This document shows, one piece after another, positions 7,098-54,093 of a stretch of 64,000 nt of DNA. This stretch comes from Shigella phage phi25-307: sequence record MG589383, one strand, 5' to 3'. A program made the position numbers and the translations under genes. Every line of letters starts with the position of its first letter. Position 1 is the stretch's first letter. The notes under the pieces were generated by a model. It saw only the letters and a list, made by a program, of their open reading frames with translations. It made no database searches and had not been told where the DNA came from.

Positions 7098-7098
7098 C

Positions 7099-11632: not shown

Positions 11633-11962
11633 TTATACTCTAGGCTTTTGAGCTTGTTTGGTATTGGATTCCCATGCGGCTTTGGTAATTTTGTTAGCGG
11701 CATAACCAAAGGCACTAGATAGAACACCTTTAGAGTTGAATACATCCAATCCAATAAGTACACCTGCTGTGTTAAATTTAGGAGCAAAGTACGCATTAGT
11801 TTTAGAAAGAGCTTTTTTCAATTCAGGGTCTTGAACCAAGCCATCAAAAACGCCTTTACCATTTACTTTATATGTTACTTTGGGATTTTTAGCTTCTTCG
11901 ATAGCAGCTTTCTGTTCCGCAGATAATGTAACTTCAGTGATAAACTCTTGATATGTTTTCAT
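11633..11962 (-). CDS. internal-protein-like protein with capsid targeting sequence, 109 aa
   Basis: Starts MKTYQEFITEV (T4 internal-protein CTS); start refined to ATG 11960-11962; long leader carrying promoter 12044-12073. Confidence 0.7.
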   Translation of the reverse strand: MKTYQEFITEVTLSAEQKAAIEEAKNPKVTYKVNGKGVFDGLVQDPELKKALSKTNAYFAPKFNTAGVLIGLDVFNSKGVLSSAFGYAANKITKAAWESNTKQAQKPRV

Positions 11963-12043
11963 TTTGTTCTCTCTAGGTTTAGACCATTCCATGGCCCATG
12001 AATTGTCCATTTTCCGTATTTACCACTCCAAGTAATTATGAAT

Positions 12044-12073
12044 ATACTATCACAATTCTAGGAGAAAGTAAAC
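12044..12073 (-). promoter_or_regulatory. early sigma70-type promoter
   Basis: gtaaac 12068-12073, atacta 12044-12049. Confidence 0.45.
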
Positions 12074-12075
12074 TG

Positions 12076-12378
12076 TTATTTACCTTTAATTACTTTAGCT
12101 GCTTCGATAGCCGCTTGCTGAAGGTCGTCCATAGACATACCGAATTTAGAAGCAAAGTTATCAATTTTCTTTTCGACCGCATTCAAAGGCTTGGCCTGTT
12201 TACCTTCATTAGCGCCTGGAAGAGCGAGAATACGCTCTTTGTCAATATAAAGGCTTACAAGTTTCTTACGGTCTTTATCGGACAAATCATGAAATGAATG
12301 GGCCTTTTTATTTATAGCGGCTTCTAATTTACCTGCACTCACTCGAGCTTCAGTAATAAATTCTTGATATGTTTTCAT
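12076..12378 (-). CDS. ipII: internal protein II-like
   Basis: CTS MKTYQEFITEA; 100 aa; adjacent to ipIII as in T4. Confidence 0.75.
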   Translation of the reverse strand: MKTYQEFITEARVSAGKLEAAINKKAHSFHDLSDKDRKKLVSLYIDKERILALPGANEGKQAKPLNAVEKKIDNFASKFGMSMDDLQQAAIEAAKVIKGK

Positions 12379-12419
12379 ATGTTTCCTTTAAATGTAAATA
12401 GGCCTAAGTACAGGCCTTA

Positions 12420-12998
12420 TTAATTACCACGGGCTGCATTAGCAACGGCATAAGCGTACTGAACATTAGCGTCTTTAAACGTACCTTTAGAGGTATCTAT
12501 TTCTGCCTTAAAGCCGCCTTTAGCCATAACATCAGCAAATTCTTTACGGAAAGCCATTGCGTCAAGACCTTTCCATGATGATTTGTGCTTGGCGAATTCA
12601 AGACCAGCGTAGTTGACAGCCTTAGCTAATTTATTATCAATAACCCATTTACCGGCTTTAGGCACAAACTTCGGTCCTTTTTGTTTAGAGAACAGTTTTA
12701 AATTCCAGCGACGAAGATCACTGTCGGCTTTAACAAAAGCTGCATCTAAGTTACTAGCAACAACATCTTCAATATGAGCAAATTTAAGTCCGTCAACTTC
12801 AATATTTAGGTCGGTACGCCAGCGAAGTCCTTCCCAAGCGAAAGCTTTAAAGTCGGAAGCTTTTGTAGCTAAGTATCGTTCAAGTGGAGCAGTTTTAGGG
12901 TCAAAGCCGTTTCCACCACGATAAGTCCACTCGTCCTTATTAATGCCTTGAGCTTTTCCTGCAAAGGCCTCGGCGATAAATTCTTTATATGTTTTCAT
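12420..12998 (-). CDS. ipIII: internal protein III
   Basis: CTS MKTYKEFIAEA; 192 aa; GINKDEWTYRGGNGFDPKTAP...KAEIDTSKG matches T4 IPIII as recalled. Confidence 0.85.
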   Translation of the reverse strand: MKTYKEFIAEAFAGKAQGINKDEWTYRGGNGFDPKTAPLERYLATKASDFKAFAWEGLRWRTDLNIEVDGLKFAHIEDVVASNLDAAFVKADSDLRRWNLKLFSKQKGPKFVPKAGKWVIDNKLAKAVNYAGLEFAKHKSSWKGLDAMAFRKEFADVMAKGGFKAEIDTSKGTFKDANVQYAYAVANAARGN

Positions 12999-13024
12999 TT
13001 TTGTTCCTATTGTTTTAATTCATG

Positions 13025-13339
13025 TTATTCTTTAGGGAAGTTTTTAGAGTATGCGTCATAAAGTTTATTGCCGATGCGACGGAAGACTCTAGCTGCAAAA
13101 CGGTTTTCAGGGTTTTTAATCATGATTTGCATCATGTAAGTTCCTGCATCCGAAAGAGCTTCTTCATAGTACCCATTAATTTCTTTAAGAGTCCTACGTT
13201 TACCACCAGGACCATCAACAGTAATTTTCCATTTACCTGTAGAAGTGCGGCTCGGTGGCTCAACTTGTTCAATCCAAATATAACCACCTTCAACGCGTTG
13301 ATTGGCGGATTCTGCAATAAATTCTTTATACGTTTTCAT
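13025..13339 (-). CDS. internal-protein-like protein with CTS, 104 aa
   Basis: Starts MKTYKEFIAES; no match to IPI/II/III recognised. Confidence 0.7.
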   Translation of the reverse strand: MKTYKEFIAESANQRVEGGYIWIEQVEPPSRTSTGKWKITVDGPGGKRRTLKEINGYYEEALSDAGTYMMQIMIKNPENRFAARVFRRIGNKLYDAYSKNFPKE

Positions 13340-13369
13340 TTTTGTTTCCTTGTTTGTTTTGATAGAGTA

Positions 13370-13399
13370 ATTATACCATATTAATACTTAAGCGTAAAC
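13370..13399 (-). promoter_or_regulatory. early sigma70-type promoter (-10 TATAAT)
   Basis: gtaaac 13394-13399, attata 13370-13375. Confidence 0.5.
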
Positions 13400-13402
13400 T
13401 GT

Positions 13403-13663
13403 TTAAGCTTTACCGCCAGAAATAATTCCGAAGTTGTTAAAATCATATCCAATATCGTCAACATCTACTTTAGGGCTTGCTACAACATAAGCAATTTCAC
13501 CACGTTTTGCATAGGTGTTGATTTCTTTACCATCGCCGCCTAGGAAAGAATACCCATTACGTTTTAATGAGCCAAAGTCTTCCGCATCACCAATGAAAGC
13601 TTTAACTTTAAATTTATGACCTTCGGCATCTGCTTCAGCGATAAATTCTTGATACATTTTCAT
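13403..13663 (-). CDS. internal-protein-like protein with CTS, 86 aa
   Basis: Starts MKMYQEFIAEA; early promoter 13370-13399 just downstream. Confidence 0.7.
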   Translation of the reverse strand: MKMYQEFIAEADAEGHKFKVKAFIGDAEDFGSLKRNGYSFLGGDGKEINTYAKRGEIAYVVASPKVDVDDIGYDFNNFGIISGGKA

Positions 13664-13669
13664 TTTTCC

Positions 13670-14083
13670 TTAGTAAATTGATTTACCATAGTATTTGTAC
13701 CAAGTAGGACGCTGAGCAATTTTTTCATCTAAGCGTGCTTGACTTATCGCAATGGACGCTTCGGACGGGACATAATTATTACGAAATTCGGCAGGGATGT
13801 CGGAAATATCCTGGACAGTCGTGTCCTTGATTTTGAAACCACGTTTCAAGCATTCAGCGATTAACTCGATTTGACGTAAACGTAAAAATTCGAGTTTGTC
13901 GTAAAAGAATGTTACATGACCTGTGCCTAAGATAAATGTTGGAGAGATTTTAAAATCCTTTACACGTTTACCGTTTTGAACATGTTTACGGACTGCACCA
14001 AATACACGTGGTAATTCACGATACTCGGCCATAAGATGTTGGTCGGTCAGTTCAGAAACAAGTGTTAAATTGATACGGGTCAT
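13670..14083 (-). CDS. denV: endonuclease V (pyrimidine-dimer DNA glycosylase/AP lyase)
   Basis: [12 protein letters not shown]...[18 protein letters not shown]...TWYKYYGK matches T4 DenV as recalled; start refined to ATG 14081-14083 with GGAGG RBS. Confidence 0.9.
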
Positions 14084-14110
14084 AATTTCCTCCAAGTAGT
14101 TGATGAATGT

Positions 14111-14140
14111 ATAGTATCAAAACCCTTGGAGGAAGTAAAC
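14111..14140 (-). promoter_or_regulatory. early promoter of denV with flanking inverted repeat
   Basis: gtaaac 14135-14140, atagta 14111-14116; flanked by cctccaag/cttggagg. Confidence 0.55.
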
Positions 14141-14141
14141 A

Positions 14142-14423
14142 CTATTTTTCTGAAGCGCCTGAAATATATTTTTCAAGACGTTGTTTCATCAACGAGCCGT
14201 TCTTAGCGATTTCTTCTGGTTTATCGCACATACGCAACAAGGCTTCAAGCTTAACGATATCACTGGTGCGCTCAAATTTGCGAGTATCTATCTTACTAGC
14301 AAGTTCAGAAATACGTGCTAATAGACTTTCAGCTTCAACCAAAGCTGCACCTAGCTTAGTTGCAAATGTGTCAGTAGCTTCGTTAAGAATAGATTCTGAT
14401 AAAAATTCACTATATGTTTTCAT
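14142..14423 (-). CDS. internal-protein-like protein with divergent CTS, 93 aa
   Basis: Starts [11 protein letters not shown] from ATG 14421-14423 (ATGA overlap with e stop); lies between e and denV. Confidence 0.65.
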
Positions 14424-14908
14424 ATATACGCTTTCCAAGTTCCTGTTTTAAATGTCGAGATTACGCGTTTCGCGCGATTAGGTGTCTGACGATACCATTT
14501 AGATTGGGCTAGATTTACTGCCGCTTCGTCCCAACGTTTCTGTTGAAGCATACGAAGAGAATTAGTAAAACCAGCGACGCCTGCTACACCCATTTGGAAG
14601 ACCATATTGACCAATGCACATCGACGAACTGCATCTAAAGAATCATATACCGGTTTAAGTTTAGCATTACCCAAGATTCCGCGAACAGCTTTATCAACGT
14701 CTTCATTAAATAACTTTTCAGCCTCATCAAGGGTAATTGTACCGTTGCATTTACGTCCGATCATTCTGTCAAGTTCAGCTTTAGCTACGGCTAAAGACGG
14801 GTTCTTTGTTACTAAATGACCTATGCCAATCGTCCAAAAGCCTTCAGTGTCTTTGTATAAAGTCAGTCTAAGACCTTCGTCATTACGAAGCATTTCAAAT
14901 ATATTCAT
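14420..14908 (-). CDS. e: lysozyme (endolysin)
   Basis: [29 protein letters not shown]...[27 protein letters not shown] matches T4 lysozyme; start ATG 14906-14908 with GGGAGG RBS inside a hairpin. Confidence 0.9.
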
Positions 14909-14910
14909 AA

Positions 14911-14934
14911 TACCTCCCACGTTTATAGGAGGTA
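14911..14934 (-). promoter_or_regulatory. RBS-sequestering hairpin in the lysozyme e leader
   Basis: Inverted repeat tacctcc / ggaggta with a 10-nt loop; the GGAGG RBS of e lies in one arm; TATAAAC late-promoter-like motif in the loop. Confidence 0.5.
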
Positions 14935-14942
14935 TTTATTAC

Positions 14943-15401
14943 TTATAGGATGGTAGTGAGCACCTTATATAATGATTTGCCCATTACATATTCCCATTGA
15001 GAAGGTTTAATTAAAGCGAATGCATCAAATTCAGGAATCTGTCGTCCGTCTGGGAATGTATGATAGGAATTACAAACACTGTTTCTGAATTGCTCGTGCT
15101 CTACAGGGATGGTATATAGGAACAGATGAATATTCTTATTGTCTGAGTAACGATGTTCACCTAGGTCTTTCAGGAAGGCAGGGTCATATTGTGTAAACCC
15201 AGTTTCTTCTTCGCATTCACGAATAGCTGCTTCAATAGGAGATTCACCGGGCTCGACACGACCTTTAGGAATATCCCACCGATGAGCTAAAGAACCTTTA
15301 GGACGAGAACCAGTTACACGCCCCATGAATAATTCTTTATCTTCGGTAAGGAAAATAATACCAGCTGATAGTTCTTTCACTTTATTTTTCTTACTCATCA
15401 T
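14943..15401 (-). CDS. nudE: Nudix hydrolase NudE
   Basis: Nudix box GRVEPGESPIEAAIRECEEETG; start chosen at ATG 15399-15401 (AGGAA RBS; ATGATGA overlap with upstream stop). Confidence 0.85.
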   Translation of the reverse strand: MMSKKNKVKELSAGIIFLTEDKELFMGRVTGSRPKGSLAHRWDIPKGRVEPGESPIEAAIRECEEETGFTQYDPAFLKDLGEHRYSDNKNIHLFLYTIPVEHEQFRNSVCNSYHTFPDGRQIPEFDAFALIKPSQWEYVMGKSLYKVLTTIL

Positions 15402-15796
15402 CTCAAATTCCTGCATTCGGTAATAAAACGTTCAACTTCATTATTCTTGGCCTTTATCTTGTCTTTACGTTCCTGTAAACTACTTTTAACAAGATTAATA
15501 ATGATGCCTACAGTACCTCCACCAATTATACCACCAATAATACTTACGATAGTAGATGCTAATAAGATGGCGATAATATCTAGTACAGCAAAGGCACTTA
15601 CTTTAGTACTAAAAAACCATATAGACGGTACAAATATAATCCATCCTGTTATCCATTGGCACTTATTGAAAAACCTTTCAAGCTCAGCTTGAGTTGTTCG
15701 TATTACTTCATCAATAGGTTGATATCCATTAATGTATCTGTTCACGATAATACCTGCTGGCTGGTCGATTTTAAATTCTTGGCAAATATGTTTCAC
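15398..15796 (-). CDS. membrane protein with C-terminal ERFITECR motif, 132 aa
   Basis: Hydrophobic segments incl. GGIIGGGTVGIIINL; only a GTG start at 15796 with no obvious RBS, so 5' end uncertain. Confidence 0.45.
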   Translation of the reverse strand: MKHICQEFKIDQPAGIIVNRYINGYQPIDEVIRTTQAELERFFNKCQWITGWIIFVPSIWFFSTKVSAFAVLDIIAILLASTIVSIIGGIIGGGTVGIIINLVKSSLQERKDKIKAKNNEVERFITECRNLR

Positions 15797-15867
15797 TAAG
15801 TAGGATGGACAGGATGTCCAATCTACTGAATAGTATGAAATACCTTCATTGCCATCAACTATTCATA

Positions 15868-16173
15868 TTATTTTCCTCGACATTCTTTAATGAAATTTTC
15901 TAGATTGGTAGATTCAATAGCTTTTTTACGAGCTTCTGCGTGTTCTTCTTCAGACAATTTACATTTATAATTGACCCAGACATTATGGTCGAAACTAGTC
16001 GTGGCATATAATAACAATGCTCCAACGAATAGCAAAAACGGTGATAAGAATACAAAACCAGGAACACCATCCATATCGTAAGCCTTTTGTAATACTGCAA
16101 CAGAAAGAGCTGCGTAAAAAGGTGATGCAAATATTGTTAAAAGACCAATTCGGTTGGTTTCGCCTAATTTCAT
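15868..16173 (-). CDS. membrane protein with C-terminal ENFIKECR motif, 101 aa
   Basis: Two hydrophobic segments; ATG 16171-16173, GAGGAG RBS; early promoter 16202-16231. Confidence 0.6.
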   Translation of the reverse strand: MKLGETNRIGLLTIFASPFYAALSVAVLQKAYDMDGVPGFVFLSPFLLFVGALLLYATTSFDHNVWVNYKCKLSEEEHAEARKKAIESTNLENFIKECRGK

Positions 16174-16201
16174 AATATTCTCCTCATGTTTTAATAGGAC
16201 T

Positions 16202-16231
16202 ACTATAACATAGTCCTATCATGTTGTAAAC
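16202..16231 (-). promoter_or_regulatory. early promoter with flanking inverted repeat
   Basis: gtaaac 16226-16231, actata 16202-16207; flanked by ataggact/agtcctat. Confidence 0.55.
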
Positions 16232-16243
16232 AGTTTTGCGAAA

Positions 16244-17200
16244 CTATTTGAAAGGTTTTACCATATGGAAATTTTGTTTGAAACGTTTGACATAATCATC
16301 ATGTCCTAAGCTTTGGTACATACTTACTACTTTGCTGTAGTTTTCCCAGGCATACTCACGGAACCAACCAGAGGTGATGCTTGTACAGACTTTTTCTAAT
16401 GCCATCATAAAACTGGCTTCAGGGTTAATTTTAAAGTCATTAGGAATCTGAGAACGTTCTAATGCTAGTACACATGATTCTTCGTATACACCGGCCAATT
16501 TGACCATTTCTGGTAATGATTCGAACTTCTCACGTGAGGTCATGACTTCAGAACCGTCTTTCATATAAAATGTATACGCTGGACGGTCTGTTAGTGCAAT
16601 GGCTTCATGAATAGTATCATGGTCATATGTATAGATATCATCTTTAAAGAACGCACTTTTAGAAGTGTCAAGAACCGGGTGAGCATAGTTCAAGGTTTCT
16701 TTCTGGCGTTTCAGCATAATTTCAGTAAGTTCATCGTTCAGTGTAACACCTTTACCACGAAGATACTGAATATGGTTCATAGTCTTTAAAAAGAACGGAT
16801 TATTTTTCTTGAAACGATGAGACATCTTAATTGCAAGACATATCTCAGGAGTTGCCCAGTAAAACCCATTCAAACAGTCTTTAGACAAATGTTTCTTGGC
16901 GTATTTTAAAAGGTCATAAGAAGACGTGAAATCTTCAGGAGTGAGTTCACCGACTAATTCACGGACATTAGTGATTGCCGGAACAATATACGCTTCAAAA
17001 TGAGTTTCGCGTCCATTATGGAAGCATTTGAAAACTTGGACATCAGGGTTATCTTGATGAACATATACACCCATCATTTGATTTTTGAATGTATTCCAAG
17101 AACCTTGGTCTGCAATAAAGTCCCAGTCACTATTTTTGATAGCGTTAGAATCAATAAGACCATGATAGTGAAGTGCACGAGAACCAATAACTAACATCAT
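16244..17200 (-). CDS. nucleotidyltransferase-like protein, 318 aa
   Basis: N-terminal IGSRALHYHGL...NSDWDF resembles the GS...DxD Pol-beta nucleotidyltransferase signature; GAGGAAA RBS. Confidence 0.55.
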   Translation of the reverse strand: MMLVIGSRALHYHGLIDSNAIKNSDWDFIADQGSWNTFKNQMMGVYVHQDNPDVQVFKCFHNGRETHFEAYIVPAITNVRELVGELTPEDFTSSYDLLKYAKKHLSKDCLNGFYWATPEICLAIKMSHRFKKNNPFFLKTMNHIQYLRGKGVTLNDELTEIMLKRQKETLNYAHPVLDTSKSAFFKDDIYTYDHDTIHEAIALTDRPAYTFYMKDGSEVMTSREKFESLPEMVKLAGVYEESCVLALERSQIPNDFKINPEASFMMALEKVCTSITSGWFREYAWENYSKVVSMYQSLGHDDYVKRFKQNFHMVKPFK

Positions 17201-17228
17201 AATATTTTCCTCGGATTAATTCATTAAC

Positions 17229-17468
17229 TTAAATTTCACGACATGCGATATCATATTCATCCCAGAGGTCATCGTGTGAAGCCTCTACCAATGGAACGAT
17301 TGTACCATTTATGTCTTCATTATAAGGGCAAATTGTACAGTGTGCATCTTCGAATCGAATGCCTTTGTGTTCAGATTTTTTATAACGCATATCGAATATC
17401 TTTGCAAACTTTTCACGAGTAATGGTTTTACCAACCACTTTGGTTCCGATACTTTCGTAATAAATCAT
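17229..17468 (-). CDS. hypothetical small Cys-rich protein, 79 aa
   Basis: ORF track; GGAG RBS; early promoter 17497-17526. Confidence 0.55.
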   Translation of the reverse strand: MIYYESIGTKVVGKTITREKFAKIFDMRYKKSEHKGIRFEDAHCTICPYNEDINGTIVPLVEASHDDLWDEYDIACREI

Positions 17469-17496
17469 TGTGGACTCCGTTTAATTTGATAGGACT

Positions 17497-17526
17497 ACTA
17501 TAACATAGCCCTATCTTGTTGTAAAC
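17497..17526 (-). promoter_or_regulatory. early promoter with flanking inverted repeat
   Basis: gtaaac 17521-17526, actata 17497-17502. Confidence 0.55.
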
Positions 17527-17554
17527 TGTTTTAGCAAGAATAACTAGATGATAC

Positions 17555-17728
17555 TCAGCCTTGAACAGTAATACTATTATTTGATACCGAGATTGCGTTC
17601 TGGAGATTCAGTCCTGCGGTATCTTCAATCCATAATGTAACTTCTTCGCGTTCTTCTGTTGCAATTTGGAACAGGTTTTCCAGGGCAGCTACTGCCGTAC
17701 GTACAGCACAATCTAATTCACGAGACAT
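17555..17728 (-). CDS. hypothetical small acidic protein, 57 aa
   Basis: Hand-translated MSRELDCAVRTAVAALENLF...; AAGGAAATCAT-ATG RBS; below ORF-track cutoff. Confidence 0.4.
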   Translation of the reverse strand: MSRELDCAVRTAVAALENLFQIATEEREEVTLWIEDTAGLNLQNAISVSNNSITVQG

Positions 17729-17737
17729 ATGATTTCC

Positions 17738-18010
17738 TTAGCAAGTGTGAGAAGACGCAATCCAACCGCCAGTTTCGAGGCTCAGATTGTAGTCGTATTG
17801 GTAAACGTCAGCCCATTCAGCATAGCCGTTTTTTGTACAACGTTCAAGATCGGCTTTAAGCTGTCCGGGTGAATGATAGGTTCCACCCATACCATAAGCT
17901 GGATACAAGTCGAATGTTGTGTTTTGTTTATCAGCAATTTCTTTGGCAGCATCAATAGCTGCATAGATTTTTGCTACAGCTTCAGCCAATTCGGTTTGTT
18001 CTTTAGACAT
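17738..18010 (-). CDS. small protein ending GGWIASSHTC (paralog of 18020-18325)
   Basis: ORF track; shares N-terminal MSK and C-terminal G-W-x-x-SS-x-x-C with the adjacent gene. Confidence 0.6.
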   Translation of the reverse strand: MSKEQTELAEAVAKIYAAIDAAKEIADKQNTTFDLYPAYGMGGTYHSPGQLKADLERCTKNGYAEWADVYQYDYNLSLETGGWIASSHTC

Positions 18011-18019
18011 AGTGATTCC

Positions 18020-18325
18020 TTAGCACAACGCAGAAGACGAAACCCAAGCACCTTCAGTAATAACGTAACCGTTACCTTCACGCTTAACATCGCCACCATT
18101 ATTTTCAATTTCATCTTTCATCCACTGGGATACGATTTCACCCTTAGGATAATAAGTACGACCGCTACCATAATCACCTACAGAAAATGATACGGCATAT
18201 TGGTCTGCGATCTTTGTTGCTTCTTCTTCGATACGTTCAGCTTGATTCAGAAGTTTATAAATTGCATCTGAAGCGGATTCGGCATCATTAAACTCTGGTA
18301 CTTTAATTTCAATAATCTTACTCAT
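18020..18325 (-). CDS. small protein ending GAWVSSSALC (paralog of 17738-18010)
   Basis: ORF track; tandem paralog. Confidence 0.6.
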   Translation of the reverse strand: MSKIIEIKVPEFNDAESASDAIYKLLNQAERIEEEATKIADQYAVSFSVGDYGSGRTYYPKGEIVSQWMKDEIENNGGDVKREGNGYVITEGAWVSSSALC

Positions 18326-18681
18326 TTTCTACATTCCTTAATAAAGTTTTCGATTGTTTCATTTTCACGTCTAGCTAGGAGTTCATTATAACTAATCATT
18401 TGAGAAGCGTAAATCTTTTTATTTTTCTTGTTATGGTTTATAAAATCGTAGTAAAAATAGACTACAGTACAAAATGATGCGATGGATGCAAAGGCTTGGG
18501 TATACCGTAAGTCCTGCCATTGGTCTGTGAATCCACCAGTGTTCCCTATAAATCCTAACACAACGCCGTCAATAAGAAATCCGACTAATCCAAAGGCAAA
18601 TCCCATGCCAATACTCATAATAAAAATTAGAATGTTCTCGCCAAGAGAAGGCCATACGGTTAAGAGTTGAGGCTTTTGCAT
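18322..18681 (-). CDS. membrane protein with C-terminal ENFIKECR motif, 119 aa
   Basis: Hydrophobic N-terminal two-thirds; AAGGAG RBS. Confidence 0.6.
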   Translation of the reverse strand: MQKPQLLTVWPSLGENILIFIMSIGMGFAFGLVGFLIDGVVLGFIGNTGGFTDQWQDLRYTQAFASIASFCTVVYFYYDFINHNKKNKKIYASQMISYNELLARRENETIENFIKECRK

Positions 18682-19055
18682 CTTATCTCCTTAACGAATT
18701 CCATAGCTTCTTCATATTCATACTTTTTAACAGCTTCATCATACTGAGCTTGGGCTTTTGCGCACTGAACTTTCCATTCTCTTAATCGGGCTCTGTGATG
18801 ACGTCCTTGGTACCAATATCCCACCCAGTTAATAGGCATTAATAAAAATGGTACAATAAACGACCCGGCTATAATAAGTAAAAACACTGCATCAGACGAT
18901 ATAACTTCACTAGAATCTAAAACAGCTCCTATAATCATAAAGATTAAAAATGCTAAAGCTAAAATAGGGCCAAATAGTACTTCGTTTGGGATTAATTTAC
19001 GCTTGTATTCATACGCCCAGGGCTTACTTGGCATGTATAGGGTTGGCTTTGACAT
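18660..19055 (-). CDS. membrane protein with C-terminal EFVKEIRCK motif
   Basis: ORF track frame; track start is TTG; first ATG at 19053-19055 used, 5' end uncertain. Confidence 0.5.
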   Translation of the reverse strand: MSKPTLYMPSKPWAYEYKRKLIPNEVLFGPILALAFLIFMIIGAVLDSSEVISSDAVFLLIIAGSFIVPFLLMPINWVGYWYQGRHHRARLREWKVQCAKAQAQYDEAVKKYEYEEAMEFVKEIRCKSLNS

Positions 19056-19620
19056 ATTCTCTACATTCCATAATAAATTGCTCAAGGATTAAATTGTTAG
19101 TGAAATTAGGACTAACAACCATGGTTTCATAAAGCGCATCAATAGCACTTAAAGCATCAGCTCTTTTAAGCAAAGGCTTGCCTTCATACATAGTTTCAGA
19201 ATCGACGATTAACGTAAAGTAATATTTTTTATTATCGACTAGAACTTCAGTATCGATATAAAACATGTTAGACCTTAAGAGCTTATCTCTAAAACCATAA
19301 TAATCTTCAGAGCGTTCGCTGATATAGTCCCGTTCAGTGTTTAAACAACAAACAGACCATGTAGGAGCAATGAAATCAGTGAATCTAATATCATGGTCTG
19401 CAACTAGTTTAGCAATAGCTCTGATATCATGAATCATAATACCTGGGGCTAATAAAGATTTTCGGTTATTTGCATATTCAGTTGTCTCATAAGAAGACGA
19501 CCAGTACCATTTACGTCCAGTTGCAACATATCGTAATGAATCAACTAAAGACGTAGGTGGATTTACCTTATTTCGGAACTCTTCGAACATTGAGTCAATA
19601 TCATTATTTTGGTTTCGCAT
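19024..19620 (-). CDS. hypothetical protein with C-terminal EQFIMECREY motif, 198 aa
   Basis: ORF track frame; start refined to ATG 19618-19620 with AAGGAG RBS. Confidence 0.55.
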   Translation of the reverse strand: MRNQNNDIDSMFEEFRNKVNPPTSLVDSLRYVATGRKWYWSSSYETTEYANNRKSLLAPGIMIHDIRAIAKLVADHDIRFTDFIAPTWSVCCLNTERDYISERSEDYYGFRDKLLRSNMFYIDTEVLVDNKKYYFTLIVDSETMYEGKPLLKRADALSAIDALYETMVVSPNFTNNLILEQFIMECREYVKANPIHAK

Positions 19621-19637
19621 GTTAACTCCTTTATTAT

Positions 19638-19661
19638 CCAAAAGGAGGACCGGAGTCCTCC
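19638..19661 (-). terminator. intrinsic terminator
   Basis: ggaggac-cgga-gtcctcc hairpin followed by TTTTGG on minus strand. Confidence 0.55.
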
Positions 19662-19669
19662 GTATTATT

Positions 19670-20263
19670 TTATTTCAAAGAGTTAATATATTCTTGTACA
19701 TCAGCAGAAGTGGTTTCGACACCAGCTGGAGTGCCATTGAACGTTTCAACACGAGTCAGAGTGTCTTCGATATCAACCTTAGTCAGTGCAGCGATTTCAA
19801 TTACATCATCAGCCGTAGAGATACCAAGGGCATTGGCTGCTCGAGTTTCACGAATGTATTCGAGTTTGATTGCCAGATTCTGACGAGCATCGTCAAGTTC
19901 AACCACCTTACGAGCAATTTCAATTCGCATAGCGGCATACCCGTCAGCTTTTGTATTAAGTTGTTCGGCAGTTCGACGATACAGAAGACCAAGCTTGGCA
20001 TGCATGGTAACATCTTGTCCTTCAGCCAGGAGCTTACGAATTTCACGTTCCTTAGAAGCGGCTTGCTTGTTCTTTTCATTAACAAGTTCGCGAATACGTT
20101 TTTCTTCATTAATAGATTTAACAGAAGCCGTTTTTAGTTCTTTGATTTGGGTAATCAACTTATCTGCAGCTGCGTTATACTGTTCTTCGACAGTCAGATT
20201 TTTAGCCATAGCAGTACTCAGTTTAGTGCGGATGAATTCAACAAGTTTCTTCAGTGTGTTCAT
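19670..20263 (-). CDS. coiled-coil protein, 197 aa
   Basis: Heptad-rich K/E/A/L composition; start refined to ATG 20261-20263; promoter 20305-20334 upstream, terminator 19638-19661 downstream. Confidence 0.55.
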
Positions 20264-20304
20264 ATTATTACCTTTCAATTGGTGGTTTATTATCCAATGA
20301 GAGC

Positions 20305-20334
20305 ATTATACTCTGCTCTCAAGAGTTTGTAAAT
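20305..20334 (-). promoter_or_regulatory. early promoter with flanking inverted repeat
   Basis: gtaaat 20329-20334, attata 20305-20310; flanked by gagagc/gctctc. Confidence 0.45.
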
Positions 20335-20561
20335 TATTTTTTAATCAAATTGACATAAAACTCGGCGTCTTCCGGGTGCATGCCTTCACAGTATTCTTCA
20401 ACCATGAACTTCTTAACAGCTTCATAAGGACCACTCAGATTAAGCTCAGTTGTCCAGAACTTGGAATCTTGGGCTGAATCGATACGAACTTCAGGGTGAC
20501 GGTTGCGAATAACTTCTTCGGTGTATTCATAATCAACGACATCAATACTAACTTTAGCCAT
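20334..20561 (-). CDS. hypothetical small acidic protein, 75 aa
   Basis: ORF track; AGAGGAAAAC RBS; early promoter 20590-20619. Confidence 0.55.
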   Translation of the reverse strand: MAKVSIDVVDYEYTEEVIRNRHPEVRIDSAQDSKFWTTELNLSGPYEAVKKFMVEEYCEGMHPEDAEFYVNLIKK

Positions 20562-20589
20562 TTTGTTTTCCTCTTGATTTGATGTGATT

Positions 20590-20619
20590 ACTATAACATA
20601 AACTTACTTAGATGTAAAT
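20590..20619 (-). promoter_or_regulatory. early sigma70-type promoter
   Basis: gtaaat 20614-20619, actata 20590-20595. Confidence 0.45.
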
Positions 20620-20772
20620 TATTTCAACGTCACCTTTAGCTGCTTTATAACCTTCAGCCCAAGATACAACAGAGTTTTTATCTGAGGATTCAAATTCAGG
20701 CATTGGACTTTCACCAATATTCACACAATATGTTTCTTCATTTTCATCGAACCAAATAATTAAAGTAATCAT
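20608..20772 (-). CDS. hypothetical small protein, 54 aa
   Basis: Hand-translated MITLIIWFDENEETYCVNIGESPMPEF...; GAGGAG RBS; early promoter 20803-20832. Confidence 0.4.
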   Translation of the reverse strand: MITLIIWFDENEETYCVNIGESPMPEFESSDKNSVVSWAEGYKAAKGDVEIIYI

Positions 20773-20802
20773 TTTGTTTACTCCTCTGTAGTTGATAAGT
20801 CT

Positions 20803-20832
20803 ATAGTATCACCATCCTTGGTGCTTGTACAT
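20803..20832 (-). promoter_or_regulatory. early sigma70-type promoter
   Basis: gtacat 20827-20832, atagta 20803-20808; conserved leader gttgataagtctatagtatcac. Confidence 0.5.
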
Positions 20833-20840
20833 CATTATTT

Positions 20841-21146
20841 TTAATTTTTCCAACTTAACAACTTGTAGTGTCCTTCATTAACACGTGGTTTATCCCAAGA
20901 AATACTAATATATGATTCACTGTCAATAGAAGTCGCCGGGTTTTTCTCTACCGTAAGACCTTCACTTTCTAGCCATTCAATAGTATTTGCGCATAAATCG
21001 GAAGAACACCTAATCGGAAACTGGCAAGATTTTTCACCTTTAGATGCAGCGTTATACATCTTTTCTAAAATACGCTTTTGCACGTTTTTAAAAATAGTTT
21101 CAGCGGATTCTTCAGATTTTTTATTCAGTTCAGTATAAAGATTCAT
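20841..21146 (-). CDS. hypothetical protein, 101 aa
   Basis: ORF track frame; start refined to ATG 21144-21146 directly after GAGGAG RBS; early promoter 21172-21201. Confidence 0.55.
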   Translation of the reverse strand: MNLYTELNKKSEESAETIFKNVQKRILEKMYNAASKGEKSCQFPIRCSSDLCANTIEWLESEGLTVEKNPATSIDSESYISISWDKPRVNEGHYKLLSWKN

Positions 21147-21171
21147 AATATTCTCCTCATTAATAGGGCTC

Positions 21172-21201
21172 ATAATATCTCAATCATAAGCCCGTGTAAA
21201 C
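21172..21201 (-). promoter_or_regulatory. early sigma70-type promoter
   Basis: gtaaac 21196-21201, ataata 21172-21177. Confidence 0.5.
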
Positions 21202-21203
21202 AA

Positions 21204-21467
21204 TTATTTCATATTATTGAAATAATCTTCCGCATCAAAATCGTTATCATGGTAAACTTTGGTAGACGATTTGGCGTAACCTTCAGCTGAGAACATATTA
21301 ATCACAACTTTAATTGTATACCACTGTCCGTCTTCATTACCCATTACTGCATAGGTTTCATACACCGGGTGTTCGGGTCCAATAACTTTAATATCATTCA
21401 CCGTACGTCCGAAATCTTCTGGAACGCATTTCATAAAGAAGTTGAACAGTTCACCGTAATTATCCAT
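21204..21467 (-). CDS. hypothetical small acidic protein, 87 aa
   Basis: ORF track frame; start refined to ATG 21465-21467 with GGAGA RBS; early promoter 21511-21540. Confidence 0.55.
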   Translation of the reverse strand: MDNYGELFNFFMKCVPEDFGRTVNDIKVIGPEHPVYETYAVMGNEDGQWYTIKVVINMFSAEGYAKSSTKVYHDNDFDAEDYFNNMK

Positions 21468-21510
21468 TTCATTCTCCAAGTTATTTTCTGTATCGGTAGT
21501 TGATAGTTGT

Positions 21511-21540
21511 ATAGTACCACGGAAGAACAGGGATGTAAAC
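21511..21540 (-). promoter_or_regulatory. early sigma70-type promoter
   Basis: gtaaac 21535-21540, atagta 21511-21516. Confidence 0.5.
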
Positions 21541-21666
21541 AGTTTTGTGAAAAAAAAAGTTTTTGTGGAATTCTAGGGCAGGGAGAGGAAATTAAAAAGT
21601 AGGATAATATATTATAAAGGGTATAAACTAAATGATGTGCCTAGAGAGGTCCAGAAAGGCCTAGAT

Positions 21667-21697
21667 ACCAAAAAGCCCCAACCTTTCGGAAGGGGCT
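21667..21697 (-). terminator. intrinsic terminator closing the tRNA/small-RNA transcription unit
   Basis: gcccc...ggggc hairpin plus TTTTTGG on minus strand; near-duplicate of the 5924-5954 terminator. Confidence 0.55.
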
Positions 21698-21748
21698 ATG
21701 CCTTGCGGCAACCTTGTCGGGGTTCCACCTGCTAAGGCAAGTGTTTGT

Positions 21749-21840
21749 ACGAAACGCCGGGATTCGAACCCGGTTATTAAGCAGTTGACGCTACTCAATA
21801 TTTTTAAAAGGCCATATCTCGACCATATCCGAACGTTCCG
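21749..21840 (-). ncRNA. tRNA-like element (possible degenerate tRNA or small stable RNA)
   Basis: Canonical T-arm CCGGGTTCGAATCCCGG followed by 7-nt strand CGTTTCG that pairs with upstream CGGAACG; no convincing D or anticodon arm found by eye; in untranslated stretch downstream of the tRNAs. Confidence 0.3.
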
Positions 21841-22008
21841 TCAAAAACGCTACTCGGCTTACGGCAAAGATATTTCCTCGAATCGATAATTCTGTGCGCC
21901 GTTTCTGCTGTGATGTAAGGGGATATTAACGAATCATAAAGATTTATTAAGACCAGTCCTTACTCAGGGAACATCAGTCCGACGACTTGCCGGTAGCGAC
22001 CCGGCTTC

Positions 22009-22353
22009 TTATTTTGGCATATCATCAATTTGTTCTCGACGCCGACGCCATAGATTAATCGCTTCATAAACACATTCTGCGTTTGGTATATGACGGCAAT
22101 AATATAATGATTCGCGTTTCTGGAACCGATGTTGTAATGGAATTTCGTTTAAAAGGTCTTTACGATCAAAGTATTCAAAACTAGTTAACCCAGAACGATT
22201 TTTAAGGAACTTCCAATGGCCAAATTCATTTTGGAAATAAACGTAATCAGCGTGTTGATATAACGAATTAATCAACCGGTCAGAAATAACTGTATCCTGT
22301 TCATTAAAATAAAACGTTAAATCATGAACTACCAGATAAATATTACCTTTCAT
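22009..22353 (-). CDS. hypothetical protein, 114 aa
   Basis: ORF track frame; start refined to ATG 22351-22353 with GAGGAAAAT RBS so it does not overlap tRNA-Arg. Confidence 0.5.
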   Translation of the reverse strand: MKGNIYLVVHDLTFYFNEQDTVISDRLINSLYQHADYVYFQNEFGHWKFLKNRSGLTSFEYFDRKDLLNEIPLQHRFQKRESLYYCRHIPNAECVYEAINLWRRRREQIDDMPK

Positions 22354-22371
22354 ATTTTCCTCACTTAAAGT

Positions 22372-22448
<77 letters not shown>

Positions 22449-22454
22449 AATATA

Positions 22455-22528
22455 TGACCCAGACCAGATTCGAACTGGTAACCTTTCCCTTATGAGGGGA
22501 CTGCTGCTAACCGTTGAGCTACAGGGCC
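22455..22528 (-). tRNA. tRNA with CAT anticodon (Met or lysidine-Ile type)
   Basis: Acceptor GGCCCTG/CTGGGTC (one mismatch), D-loop with GG, anticodon loop CTCATAA, T-arm ACCAG-TTCGAAT-CTGGT; D and anticodon stems imperfect. Confidence 0.55.
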
Positions 22529-22607
22529 TAAATAACTTTCTATTATGAAAGGCACTTTAGAGCACCTTTGGTAATAGAGTGTATGAATTAATAATAACAC
22601 ATAATTC

Positions 22608-23123
22608 TTAAAGCAAATCAATCATTTTAACGGTTGGCAAAACGATTTCTTCTTCAATATAAGCAAATTCGACACGTTCAACTACACGCAAGAAATCATA
22701 ATCATAATATTCAGAAGCATGGCCAAGAATATCAGTGAGACCTTCTGATACCAAATATCCGTTCTCACGGAACAGGTCAAATACACGTGATTCGTCTTCT
22801 TCAGATTTATTACCGAGGTCGACTTCAATATCAAAGACCTTTTTAATGAATTCTGGATAAAGCTGGTCTGAGAACAGTCCTTCAACCAAGTATTCATAGA
22901 TTAAAAGCGAGCAATCACTGAATAGTGTATTACCACAGTAACGTTCAGCTTTAGTACTAGAATGACGACTCTTAAATTTCTTCAAGAGATATTTAAACTG
23001 TTGGAGCTCATGCTCTTCTACACCAAATAATGTTTTGGTTTTATAGTTGTCACCGTCATTTTCCCAAGTAGTGACATCAATTACATAACCTTTAGGAATT
23101 GTACTGCCTAAACAAATATTCAT
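22608..23123 (-). CDS. hypothetical protein, 171 aa
   Basis: ORF track; immediately upstream of the tRNA pair. Confidence 0.55.
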   Translation of the reverse strand: MNICLGSTIPKGYVIDVTTWENDGDNYKTKTLFGVEEHELQQFKYLLKKFKSRHSSTKAERYCGNTLFSDCSLLIYEYLVEGLFSDQLYPEFIKKVFDIEVDLGNKSEEDESRVFDLFRENGYLVSEGLTDILGHASEYYDYDFLRVVERVEFAYIEEEIVLPTVKMIDLL

Positions 23124-23127
23124 TTAC

Positions 23128-23418
23128 TCACCGTACCATATTAATGTAATTATATTCAATGCAACGTAATTTCAAAGGATTCTTGAAAATATCATATTCA
23201 AGAGGACCTTTTTCTGTTTCAATAAAGAAATCAAAGTTAACTGTGTTAAATTTATCATCTTCACAGAGTAATTTAACCTGTGAAGACGAACGGTCGATGT
23301 AAACCTTTTCAACTTCAAAACATGTTAAAATGCCATAATCATCAATCAAGGCTTTAGCTGCTTCTTGATCATATTTATATCCATTTTCAATGGATGATAC
23401 TTTCGCATAAAGAATCAT
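23128..23418 (-). CDS. hypothetical protein, 96 aa
   Basis: ORF track; tightly packed in operon. Confidence 0.55.
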   Translation of the reverse strand: MILYAKVSSIENGYKYDQEAAKALIDDYGILTCFEVEKVYIDRSSSQVKLLCEDDKFNTVNFDFFIETEKGPLEYDIFKNPLKLRCIEYNYINMVR

Positions 23419-23420
23419 TA

Positions 23421-23795
23421 TTAACCTTTATCAACAATAGTATGTGTATGGGCATTTACGATTTGCCACCAGTCAAAACTATCGCCAAATCGTTTTGATT
23501 TATTGTCTTCAATAATTTGGCGTAATTCATCTTCAGTAGCGGCTTTCGCGATTAAATCAGCATATCCACCACGAGGATAATAATTATCACCTGCAAAAAG
23601 TAAAAAGTTTGGTTTAATATTATTAAACTCTTCAAGAGTAATAACTGTTCCACCAGGTTGAACAATATCTACATAACTATATCCTAATTTTTGAGCAGCA
23701 TCTACTGCTTCAAGCAGGGTATCATGAGCCCATCCAATTTGGCAATCTGGCTTTTCAGATGGATTAGCCTGATAATCCGCGTACACTTTATACAT
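23421..23795 (-). CDS. hypothetical protein, 124 aa
   Basis: ORF track frame; start refined to ATG 23793-23795 with AAAGGTGA RBS, 1 nt after upstream TAG. Confidence 0.55.
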   Translation of the reverse strand: MYKVYADYQANPSEKPDCQIGWAHDTLLEAVDAAQKLGYSYVDIVQPGGTVITLEEFNNIKPNFLLFAGDNYYPRGGYADLIAKAATEDELRQIIEDNKSKRFGDSFDWWQIVNAHTHTIVDKG

Positions 23796-23796
23796 T

Positions 23797-23982
23797 CTAT
23801 TCACCTTTTGCAATTTTATCCATAACGATAGCGATTAAGCCGATTAGAAATGCTACTACCAATGAGATAGAATTTTCTGTTGTTGTCAGTAGTCCACAAA
23901 TGAATCCTACAAACATCGAAAAACTAAAAGCCATTGAAGCAATTACTACAGCAACATTACGAATCAGTTCAGCACGTTTCAT
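23797..23982 (-). CDS. small membrane protein, 61 aa
   Basis: Two hydrophobic helices; GAGGAG RBS; early promoter 24011-24040. Confidence 0.5.
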   Translation of the reverse strand: MKRAELIRNVAVVIASMAFSFSMFVGFICGLLTTTENSISLVVAFLIGLIAIVMDKIAKGE

Positions 23983-24010
23983 TTTATTCTCCTCAGTAGT
24001 TGATAGGGTA

Positions 24011-24040
24011 ATAGTATCACTACCCTATCTAAAAGTAAAC
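24011..24040 (-). promoter_or_regulatory. early promoter with flanking inverted repeat
   Basis: gtaaac 24035-24040, atagta 24011-24016; flanked by gatagggta/taccctatc. Confidence 0.55.
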
Positions 24041-24051
24041 GGTTTTATAAA

Positions 24052-24360
24052 CTATTTTATTCCGCGTGATGCAATCGTATTCTGCCGTTTAACGCCAGTT
24101 TGTTTAAAGTTATGATTGTCGAGTTGATCGGTACGAGCAACTCCAAACGATGATTTAATCTTAGCTTTAGATCCTTTAGTTATAGAAATAAACATCTCGG
24201 GAGCCCCTTTCTTAAAGTCCGAAGCAATTACTTCAACACCGTTCTTAGCAAGTGACCTCAGAATTGCTTCCGCATACTCATCATCAAGACCCGCTTGAGT
24301 ATGAATAACGAATGTCTTTGGTGCAGCTGCTTCACAGATAAATTCTTTGAAAGTTTTCAT
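24052..24360 (-). CDS. internal-protein-like protein with CTS at the ipI locus, 102 aa
   Basis: Starts MKTFKEFICEA; directly upstream of 57B where T4 carries ipI; early promoter 24391-24420. Confidence 0.7.
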   Translation of the reverse strand: MKTFKEFICEAAAPKTFVIHTQAGLDDEYAEAILRSLAKNGVEVIASDFKKGAPEMFISITKGSKAKIKSSFGVARTDQLDNHNFKQTGVKRQNTIASRGIK

Positions 24361-24390: not shown

Positions 24391-24420
24391 ACTATAACAT
24401 AGTCCTATCAGCATGTAAAC
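24391..24420 (-). promoter_or_regulatory. early promoter with flanking inverted repeat
   Basis: gtaaac 24415-24420, actata 24391-24396; flanked by ataggact/agtcctat. Confidence 0.55.
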
Positions 24421-24433: not shown

Positions 24434-25119
<686 letters not shown>

Positions 25120-51192: not shown

Positions 51193-52764
51193 ATGAAATT
51201 TAATATCTTAAGTTTGTTTGCTCCATGGGCAAAAATGGACGAACGTGATTACAAAGACCAAGAAAAAGAAAATTTAGAATCTATCACCGCACCAAAATTG
51301 GACGACGGCGCTAAAGAATATGAAGTATCTGAAAATGAAGCACAGCAAACATATAATGCTATGTTTCAGAGAATGTTCGGTAGTCAAGAACCAGGGCTCA
51401 AATCAACCCGTGAATTAATCGATACGTATCGAAATTTGATGACGAACTATGAAGTGGATAACGCGGTCTCTGAAATAGTTTCCGATGCTATCGTGTATGA
51501 AGATGATACAGAAGTCGTTTCTATAAATTTAGACAACACAAAATTTAGTCCAAATATCAAATCAATGATGTTGGATGAATTTAATGAAGTGTTAAATCAT
51601 TTATCTTTCCAACGTAAAGGTTCAGATCATTTTAGACGTTGGTATGTGGATTCTCGAATTTTCTTCCATAAAATTATTGACCCTAAACGCCCTAAAGAAG
51701 GTATTAAAGAGCTTCGTCGTTTAGACCCACGTCAAGTTCAATATGTCCGTGAAGTTATTACAACCACTGAAGCCGGTGTTAAAATAGTCAAGGGTTATAA
51801 AGAATATTTCATTTATGACACATCACACGAATCTTATGCTTGTGATGGTCGCATATATGAAGCTGGCACAAAAATAAAAATCCCTAAAGCCGCGATTGTT
51901 TATGCCCATTCTGGTTTAGTTGATTGCTGTGGTAAAAATATCATCGGTTATTTGCATCGGGCTATTAAGCCAGCGAACCAATTAAAACTTCTTGAAGATG
52001 CCGTCGTAATTTATCGTATTACTCGTGCTCCCGATCGTCGTGTATGGTACGTTGATACAGGTAATATGCCTTCAAGAAAAGCAGCAGAACATATGCAACA
52101 TGTTATGAATACGATGAAAAACCGTATTGCATATGATGCTACTACAGGCAAGATTAAAAACCAGCAGCATATTATGTCGATGACCGAAGATTATTGGTTA
52201 CAACGACGTGATGGTAAAGCAGTAACAGAAGTTGACACATTACCAGGTGCAGATAATACCGGAAATATGGAAGATGTACGTTGGTTCCGTAATGCGCTTT
52301 ATATGGCTTTACGTATTCCTATTACCCGTATTCCAAGTGACCAAGGTGGTATACAGTTTGATGCTGGCACTTCTATTACACGAGATGAATTGTCATTTGG
52401 TAAATTTATTCGTGAGCTGCAACATAAATTTGAAGAGATATTCCTAGACCCGCTTAAAACTAATTTAATTCTTAAAGGAATTATTACAGAAGATGAGTGG
52501 AATGATGAAATAAATAATATTAAGATAAAATTTCATCGGGATAGTTATTTCTCGGAATTAAAGGATGCTGAGATTCTGGAGCGTCGCATTAATATGCTTC
52601 AGATGGCCGAACCATTTATTGGTAAATATATTTCTCACAGAACAGCTATGAAAGATATTCTTCAGATGTCTGACGAGGAAATTGAACAAGAGGCTAAGCA
52701 AATTGAAGAAGAGTCGAAAGAGGCTCGTTTCCAAGACCCCGACCAAGAACAAGAGGATTTTTAA
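51193..52764 (+). CDS. 20: gp20 portal vertex protein
   Basis: 523 aa; late promoter 51157-51164. Confidence 0.95.
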
Positions 52765-52994
52765 TGGACGATTTAATTCAAGCTATTAAATCAAACGACC
52801 TCGTTGCTACTCGAAAGTTTTTTGAAAGTGCAATGGCAGAAAAAACGGTTCGTTTGATTGAAGCACGCAAAGCAGAAATCGCTTCTCAATTTTTGATTGA
52901 AGGCGAAGAACCTGAAGAAGAGAAAGCTTCGGAAGACGACGAAGACGAAGATGATGACGATGAAGACGAATATGATGATGAGGACGATGAATAA
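52764..52994 (+). CDS. 67: gp67 prohead core protein
   Basis: 76 aa with acidic D/E tail; synteny. Confidence 0.8.
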
Positions 52995-53419
52995 TGTATC
53001 TTATCCCTGAATCTTATGAATTGGTACTCGAAAATGTCGAAGCACTTATTCCTGAAGCACAGGGCCGAATCGATGCATTGTCTTCTGCTCTCGATATTGA
53101 CGATATAAATACTATTATCGAGAACATGCTTGAAACTGAAACGGATTTAGCTGTTGCAATGGCTTCCATTATTAATGAAGAACAGTTAAATGAGTTTATC
53201 GTTAAACATGTTTCTTCTCGTGGTGAAGTCACTCGCACTAAAGACCGTAAAACTCGTGAACGTAACGCGTTCCAAACAACCGGTCTTTCTAAAGCAAAAC
53301 GTAGACAAATCGCTCGTAAGGTCGTTAAAGCTAAAAAAGCTAACCCTTCAGGCCAAGTTAAAGGCTTGCGTAAGCGTAAAAAAGCTCTTAAACGTCGTAA
53401 AGCATTAGGATTAAGCTAA
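52994..53419 (+). CDS. 68: gp68 prohead core protein
   Basis: 141 aa with basic C-terminus; synteny. Confidence 0.8.
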
Positions 53420-54060: not shown

Positions 54061-54063
54061 ATA
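54056..54063 (+). promoter_or_regulatory. late promoter TATAAATA for gene 22
   Basis: Exact motif overlapping the gp21 stop. Confidence 0.6.
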
Positions 54064-54093
54064 ATAATGTAATCTAAACCACAGGACACTAAA

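Follow-up and report, generated by a model that had tools for sequence, protein, structure and literature searches.

Seven T4-type internal-protein genes in the RB69-like Shigella phage phi25-307, five of them encoding candidate injected anti-defence proteins

We analyzed a stretch of 64,000 nucleotides of DNA from Shigella phage phi25-307 (sequence record MG589383; the whole stretch is called the window below) and found that seven of its open reading frames (ORFs) begin with the capsid targeting sequence (CTS) known from the internal proteins (Ips) of phage T4. Judged by sequence, the seven are T4-type internal-protein (ip) genes of Mosigvirus, the genus of RB69-like T-even phages. This finding is correct but already known: the gene class, the families Ip5, Ip7, and Ip10, and the hypothesis of an anti-defence function have all been described previously, and six of the seven exact protein sequences were already deposited in public databases. 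Taking the reading as a whole, we think it likely that these Mosigvirus ip genes encode proteins that are packaged in the head and injected, and whose bodies inhibit variants of Type IV restriction enzymes. Beyond re-identification, the analysis adds a single observation, a mosaic structure bounded by the leader codons. The seven genes, all of which lie on the minus strand, are referred to below by letter.

11633..11962, minus strand: A, 109 amino acids; mature body with an isoelectric point (pI) of 9.7; homolog of RB69 ORF123c; phrog_3966; no ipN name
12076..12378, minus strand: B, ipII ortholog, 100 amino acids; 93% identical to T4 IPII; phrog_7857; DNA 93.6% identical to T4
12420..12998, minus strand: C, ipIII ortholog, 192 amino acids; 93% identical to T4 IPIII; phrog_5341; DNA 89% identical to T4
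13025..13339, minus strand: D, Ip10 gene, 104 amino acids; mature body pI 9.6; homolog of RB69 ORF124c
13403..13663, minus strand: E, 86 amino acids; acidic body, pI 5.2; homolog of RB69 ORF125c; 216 phage records
14142..14423, minus strand: F, 93 amino acids; pI 6.3; divergent member of the Ip5 family; homolog of RB69 ORF127c; phrog_3499
24052..24360, minus strand: G, Ip7 gene, 102 amino acids; mature body pI 9.85; homolog of RB69 ORF156c; adjoins 57B

The genes were identified in an ORF listing of 10.5 to 25.5 kb together with a six-frame regular-expression scan of the whole window for M-K-[TM]-[YF]-x-E-F-[IL]-x-E. The scan returned the same seven ORFs that an initial annotation, made from the sequence alone, had placed at these coordinates. 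The strict motif found no match in 100 mononucleotide shuffles and none in 100 codon-block shuffles, against seven in the actual sequence, and a relaxed version retrieved the identical seven ORFs from the window and none besides. As first worded, the leader was MKT(Y/F)xEF(I/L)xE, which fits six of the ORFs (A, for example, starts MKTYQEFITE); E departs from it, with MKM instead of MKT (MKMYQEFIAE). In each ORF the CTS start lies 2 to 19 codons past the previous in-frame stop codon. Targeting is known to depend on leader residues 4 and 7, and processing on residues 8 and 10 (PMC9026906). The aromatic residue at position 4 and the Phe at position 7 are kept in all seven ORFs, as is the (I/L)-x-E processing motif for the protease gp21 at residues 8 to 10 (ITE, ITE, IAE, IAE, IAE, LSE, and ICE); F has a second possible gp21 site at LNE15/A. 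The DNA encoding the leader is closely alike in all seven genes.

The window represents an RB69-like T-even phage, with S143_2 and ESh15 as its best megablast matches. Its first group of CTS genes is arranged in the order e - F - denV - E - D - ipIII - ipII - A - vs.8, and the second locus reads tRNA.4 - G - 57B - 57A - gene 1. Comparison with the T4 and RB69 maps places the six CTS genes around denV and e, and the single gene beside 57B, in the two hypervariable Ip loci, which hold ipIII/ipII and ipI, respectively, in T4 and ORFs labelled “internal head protein” in RB69. G sits directly downstream of 57B (24434-24889), in agreement with the initial annotation. A T4-type ipI is not found at the 57B locus, and the ipI gene of RB69 likewise has no counterpart in the window. 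The 57B gene itself (24434-24889, minus strand), directly upstream of Ip7, is labelled in relatives as an Acb1-like protein directed against the cyclic-oligonucleotide-based antiphage signaling system (CBASS); going by that annotation, a known anti-defence gene adjoins the Ip locus.

Assignment of the bodies to families gave a more differentiated picture than the initial annotation. Its labels for B (IPII-like) and C (IPIII) are borne out, as both proteins are 93% identical to their T4 namesakes. It had described the remaining five as having no recognisable T4 counterpart, and with regard to T4 itself this is accurate: after removal of the first 10 residues, A, D, E, F, and G have no BLAST similarity to T4 IPI, IPII, or IPIII or to one another. 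Beyond T4, the statement does not hold, since three of the five fall into named families: G into Ip7, D into Ip10, and F into Ip5. G is similar over its full length to the ip7 products of T2 and RB32 (91-92% identical over 102 amino acids; 282 records), its close relatives are named “Ip7 protein”, and its sole strong match in BFVD is Ip7. D clusters at 90% with “Ip10 [Enterobacteria phage Pol]” (CAA84455), resembles Ip10 of Pol and SP18 over its full length, and is 71% identical to Ip10 of phage SP18 and 72% identical to that of VR25 (188 phage records). F is similar to the ip5 products of T2, PP01, and wV7 as a divergent member (47-51% identical over 84 amino acids, E-values 1e-15 to 2e-17; 495 records) and is 48% identical to Bas37_0261; both proteins match phrog_3499 when their mature bodies are scanned alone. 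The RB69 counterparts of E and F are labelled “internal head protein” in RefSeq. A was found by tblastn in 89 phage records and is annotated as “hypothetical protein” in every match listed; each close match among those listed is an RB69-like phage, and a set of 5.8 billion proteins contained only two clusters of this protein. Searching the literature for Ip7 to Ip10 by name turned up unrelated papers only.

We also compared the mature bodies with one another and with internal proteins of established function. Homology of the mature body to the GmrSD-inhibiting proteins Ip1, Ip2, and Ip3 was found for B and C (93%) and for none of A, D, E, F, and G; nor did any of these five match phrog_4363, to which T4 Ip1 belongs. 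Profile-profile comparisons of mature bodies, built from surveyed homologs, gave a probability below 1% in every pair tested. Common PHROG membership (phrog_3966 for A and D, phrog_2667 for E and G) was considered as a sign of paralogy and rejected in view of the same profile comparison (<1%). We therefore read phrog_3966 and phrog_2667 as heterogeneous families, possibly merged through the shared leader. A Pfam scan of the window Ips gave no match at family threshold.

Hidden Markov model and structure-prediction searches of the mature bodies had been proposed as a check by the initial annotation; profile scans yielded PHROG matches, and structure prediction gave no clue to function. The AlphaFold2 model of G (predicted local distance difference test score, pLDDT, of 65) has a beta-alpha-beta-beta-alpha-beta arrangement, a generic ferredoxin-like core, followed by a disordered, conserved, basic C-terminal tail. 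The model of D, at a pLDDT of 49, is unreliable and was left out of the fold search, and a sequence search of solved structures with G and D found nothing significant. When 1.84 billion representatives were searched with an Ip7 profile, three true relatives were retrieved; a fourth match was rejected as spurious, being a repeat protein. Going by these sequence comparisons, the window Ip families are narrow, phage-restricted orphan families.

The alignments with T4, RB69, and S143_2 directly reveal how these genes are bounded. Across the denV locus the window is ~97% identical to RB69 on both sides (10001-11969 and 12973-15404) of the following segment.

11970..12972, minus strand: T4-type ipII-ipIII cassette, which RB69 lacks; both junctions fall within CTS codons

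This segment is 89-94% identical to T4, whereas the flanking denV and e genes are just 71-78% identical. A single 33-nucleotide stretch of RB69, at the start of ORF123c, aligns with the starts of both A and C, and in a three-way alignment of the junction the crossover falls within the leader codons. S143_2 differs from the window in having no ipII, and that junction likewise lies in leader codons. At the 57B locus, the leader and promoter of G align to those of RB69 ipI. Cassette boundaries inside the CTS codons fit shuffling by recombination. Repoila and colleagues, in EMBO J in 1994, reportedly described both the variable ip repertoire, including Ip5, Ip7, and Ip10, and a model in which cassettes are shuffled by recombination at conserved leader and regulatory sequences. 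The Ip7 proteins of Tequatrovirus resemble G more (91-95%) than do those of other Mosigvirus phages (~63%), and an identical D protein is present in a Tequatrovirus; together, these similarities suggest that cassettes cross genera. They also appear to move between the two Ip loci, because the Ip5/F body family occupies different loci in different phages: in the window it lies between e and denV, and in Bas37 (KarlGJung 13864-14121) and T2 it is found at the ipI locus.

The initial annotation had spoken of an expanded set of internal-protein genes. For the genus this does not apply, because RB69 too has seven leader-bearing ORFs (123c, 124c, 125c, 127c, 149c, ipI, and 156c); T4 has three and Bas37 has two. 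In a survey of ~70 T4-like loci anchored on DenV or 57B, we counted ~28 distinct body families behind the CTS, and all five of the window families recur there. Two of the RB69 genes merit separate mention. ORF149c (15551-15991, 146 amino acids; CTS MKTYAEFLTE) lies in the e.8-tRNA region, outside both classical Ip loci, and has no counterpart in the window. In ORF127c (6923-7204), the homolog of F, the leader region is scrambled and reads MKTYMNFYQNLSLNE, suggestive of a double frameshift in the leader codons; this copy may fail to be packaged, or there may be errors in the record.

The window also contains the genes that are expected to recognize and process the leader.

52764..54906, plus strand: prohead core genes, comprising the four that follow
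52764-52994, plus strand: gp67 (Pfam GP67, 4e-22)
52994-53419, plus strand: ORF at the gp68 position, assigned by position alone (no Pfam match)
53419-54060, plus strand: gp21 prohead protease (Peptidase_S77, 3e-107)
54094-54906, plus strand: gp22 scaffold (T4_CASP, 5e-89)

The region from 51.2 to 58.2 kb also encodes the portal protein gp20, gp23, and gp24. With the genes for gp21, gp22, and gp67 in the window, machinery of the T4 type for recognition and removal of the leader is present.

Signals for expression were identified upstream of several of the seven genes.

13370..13398, minus strand: sigma-70/T4-early-type promoter upstream of D (TTTACG, 17-nucleotide spacer, TATAAT)
24391..24419, minus strand: T4-early-type promoter upstream of G (TTTACA, 17-nucleotide spacer, TATAGT, with TG), like the sequence upstream of T4 ipI
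12036..12075 (approximate), minus strand: promoter-like region upstream of A, in which, by eye, tttactttctcctagaattgtgatagtatattc resembles the T4 ipIII promoter tgtttactttctcttggaattgtgatagtatattc
12400..12417, minus strand: terminator-like hairpin between ipIII and ipII

Early promoters of the GTTTAC type thus precede A, D, and G, and the same architecture is found upstream of ipI, ipII, and ipIII in T4. C, E, and F come close behind the preceding gene, and the ATG of F overlaps the stop codon of the lysozyme gene e, which suggests translational coupling. Inspection by eye found ribosome-binding sites of the AGGA type in B, C, D, E, and G and GAGAG in A, with only a weak site in F. A perfect copy of the late-promoter motif TATAAATA is located inside the ipII coding sequence (12316, minus strand), ~350 nucleotides upstream of A; on reading the sequence, it is due to a Val-to-Ile codon difference from T4.

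By analogy with T4, the seven genes suggest the following sequence of events. The CTS would bind each protein to the gp22/gp67/gp68 scaffolding core during prohead formation, and gp21 would then cut after Glu10. The mature bodies of 8-20 kDa would remain in the head with the DNA, where T4 holds a few hundred copies of each internal protein, and would subsequently be injected. Each injected body would most likely inhibit, specifically and stoichiometrically, a single variant of a modification-dependent (Type IV) restriction enzyme, for example one of the GmrSD/BrxU family or McrBC, that would otherwise cut the hypermodified phage DNA before phage gene expression. The repertoire would vary by cassette swaps through recombination in the conserved CTS codons and promoter sequences.

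Published work on related proteins provides the basis for this analogy. The 10-residue CTS alone is able to package foreign proteins (PMC3012670, PMC9026906), and an anti-defence role of Ips has been proposed in print (PMC3012670, PMC12373910). Silas 2025 reported that T4 Ip1, Ip2, and Ip3 each have a GmrSD enzyme of their own as target and do not protect against the targets of the other two, and that related phages have at least ten further Ips; all genes of the Ip loci were proposed to act against variants of the GmrSD family (PMC12373910). Srikant et al. 2022 found IPIII to be required with ECOR17 as the host, and to function in trans when the CTS is removed (PMC9391042). A 2025 preprint shows that Bas37_0260, a CTS protein of the ipI locus, inhibits McrBC (bioRxiv 10.1101/2025.11.20.689424). 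In all, four Ips have identified targets, and every one of these is a Type IV restriction enzyme. Against this background, we infer packaging, cleavage, injection, and an anti-restriction role for A, D, E, F, and G, whose role would most likely be subtype-specific inhibition of modification-dependent restriction enzymes. The suggestion in the initial annotation that these five bodies are candidate co-injected anti-defence effectors is thereby supported by analogy and matches the published proposal for the gene class.

Several observations weigh against this interpretation. When ip4-10 were assayed against a panel of active GmrSD variants, there was no reproducible inhibition (PMC12373910 supplement), and by name this set takes in Ip5, Ip7, and Ip10. 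A, D, E, F, and G resemble neither Ip1-3 nor Bas37_0260 beyond the leader, and whereas IPII and IPIII of T4 are basic, E (pI 5.2) and F (pI 6.3) are acidic or near neutral. Structure prediction offered no clue to the function of G or D, and our literature search found no virion proteomics for the five bodies or for Mosigvirus Ips. In addition, TATAAATA is absent within 110 nucleotides upstream of all seven genes. The regions upstream of the T4 ip genes also showed no late-promoter motif when inspected by eye, with no pattern search made; since the T4 genes, too, are without a visible upstream late promoter, its lack here is no argument against their identity as ip genes.

The negative screen raises the question of whether the five bodies are injected anti-defence proteins directed at systems other than Type IV restriction, such as other defences that sense entering DNA or further first-response defences, in which case the analogy with GmrSD would be misleading. 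We consider this unlikely. Apart from the missing activity of Ip4-10 on the tested GmrSD variants, it is favored by the lack of relationship among the bodies, two of which are acidic or near neutral, and by the neighboring 57B, whose annotation in relatives as a member of the Acb1 anti-CBASS family indicates that other kinds of anti-defence gene cluster here. The one non-T4 Ip reported to have a target, Bas37_0260, hits McrBC and not GmrSD. On the other hand, Ip1, Ip2, Ip3, and Bas37_0260, that is, four of the four Ips with an identified target, inhibit modification-dependent restriction enzymes, and a protein delivered before transcription would be most useful against nucleases that attack the entering DNA. 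Moreover, the screen covered few enzymes and used T-even phages with glucosylated hydroxymethylcytosine (glucosyl-hmC) (PMC12373910), so that Mosigvirus DNA was not part of it.

Two other explanations were weighed. Some or all of the five could be mainly structural, as basic proteins of the core or associated with DNA that aid head assembly, charge neutralisation, or DNA packing and have no specific host target. T4 IPIII mutants do show slower head assembly and smaller bursts, and inside the head, lysines of internal proteins are in contact with the phosphates of the DNA (PMC9026906, PMC3012670); three of the bodies, A, D, and G, have a basic pI of 9.6-9.85, and the basic, disordered C-terminal tail of G is conserved. 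We nonetheless regard a mainly structural role as very improbable: T4 can do without its IP genes on laboratory hosts (PMC9026906), IPIII functions from a plasmid without its CTS (PMC9391042), E and F are not basic, and the extreme presence and absence of these genes in close relatives (two in Bas37, seven in RB69 and in the window) fits accessory host-range genes better. It is harder still to credit that the ORFs include cassette remnants, decaying or not expressed, in which the leader persists only through recent recombination. Individual copies do decay, as judged from the scrambled leader of F in RB69 (MKTYMNFYQNLSLNE) and from the RB69 copy of D, which aligns in two pieces, and F in the window lacks a separate promoter, with a ribosome-binding site that is no more than weak. 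All seven genes are nevertheless intact in the window, each body is at least 95% identical in 26 to 231 other phage genomes, and a ribosome-binding site is recognizable by eye in all but F, for which the overlap of its start with the stop of e suggests translational coupling.

Within the interpretation that the bodies inhibit Type IV enzymes, a more specific idea can be formulated for A and possibly E. Mosigvirus DNA contains arabinosylated 5-hydroxycytosine and is cut by the GmrSD-family enzyme BrxU (PMC13390438). A has no ipN name, is “hypothetical” throughout, and has close matches, among those listed, only in RB69-like phages. It is conceivable, although on balance we doubt it, that A and perhaps E are dedicated inhibitors of a Type IV enzyme that recognizes arabinosylated 5-hydroxycytosine, the modification specific to Mosigvirus, with a BrxU-like GmrSD as the obvious candidate for the enzyme. 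If so, an anti-restriction protein would for the first time have been paired with this modification, and the negative results for Ip4-10 in screens with glucosyl-hmC phages would be explained. More generally, Ips would act before phage gene expression and so help to set which wild hosts a T4-like phage infects, a role relevant to the choice or engineering of therapeutic phages. The window represents no new kind of system, as near-identical genes occur in hundreds of deposited genomes; what it offers is a compact set of five candidates on a phage with arabinosylated DNA, together with a clear case of cassette exchange at leader codons.

Several features of the surrounding sequence were noted in passing. 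The window has only two transfer RNA (tRNA) genes, Arg-tct and Met-cat (22372-22448 and 22455-22528, minus strand); RB69 is alike, whereas T4 has eight at this position. Just downstream of the Ip cluster is a vs.6 homolog (10246-10608, minus strand), an autonomous glycyl radical cofactor (GrcA-like) by the annotation of relatives. Between nudE and an e.6-like gene, five adjacent minus-strand ORFs (15398-15796, 15868-16173, 18322-18681, 18660-19085, and 19024-19641) end in a common F-[I/V]-x-E-[C/I]-R (e.g., ENFIKECRGK, ENFIKECRK, and ERFITECRNLR), and several of them resemble small membrane proteins. These ORFs may constitute a paralogous family with a conserved C-terminal tag.

Finally, we compared the window genes with the closest known systems. 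The Dar proteins of phage P1 (DarA, DarB, and Hdf) are likewise anti-restriction proteins that are packaged in the head and enter the host along with the DNA (PMC12810830); they are unrelated in protein and targeting mechanism and act on Type I restriction, and the comparison is one of analogy only. Bas37_0260 of KarlGJung has the leader, the type of locus, and the small size in common with the window Ips and demonstrates that a non-T4 Ip can inhibit Type IV restriction. We rejected the possibility that any window Ip is this McrBC inhibitor: BLAST matches were essentially confined to the leader, except for a weak alignment of 52 residues with G (E = 4e-5, leader included), in the mature-body scan Bas37_0260 matched phrog_8111 alone, and G and E reached a probability of at most 0.6% against it in hhalign. 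Its neighbor Bas37_0261 is a homolog of F, and the portion of the preprint available reports no phenotype for it. Under the names used in the T2, RB32, PP01, SP18, and VR25 records, Ip5, Ip7, and Ip10 correspond to F, G, and D, respectively, with the difference that F is on a divergent branch of Ip5 and lies between e and denV, not at the ipI locus. With T4 Ip1-3, the window genes share the CTS, the gp21 cleavage motif, both loci, the promoter type, and a similar size, and B and C are orthologs at 93%; they differ in that the bodies of A, D, E, F, and G have no detectable sequence relationship to those proteins, a T4-type ipI is not in the window, and the order e-F-denV-E-D-ipIII-ipII-A replaces the e-ipIII-ipII-denV of T4. 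RB69 differs from the window in having no ipII or ipIII, in its additional ipI and ORF149c, and in the scrambled leader of ORF127c. Its backbone is ~97% identical to that of the window near denV and ~89% identical near 57B, and its ORF123c, 124c, 125c, 127c, and 156c are the direct counterparts of A, D, E, F, and G.

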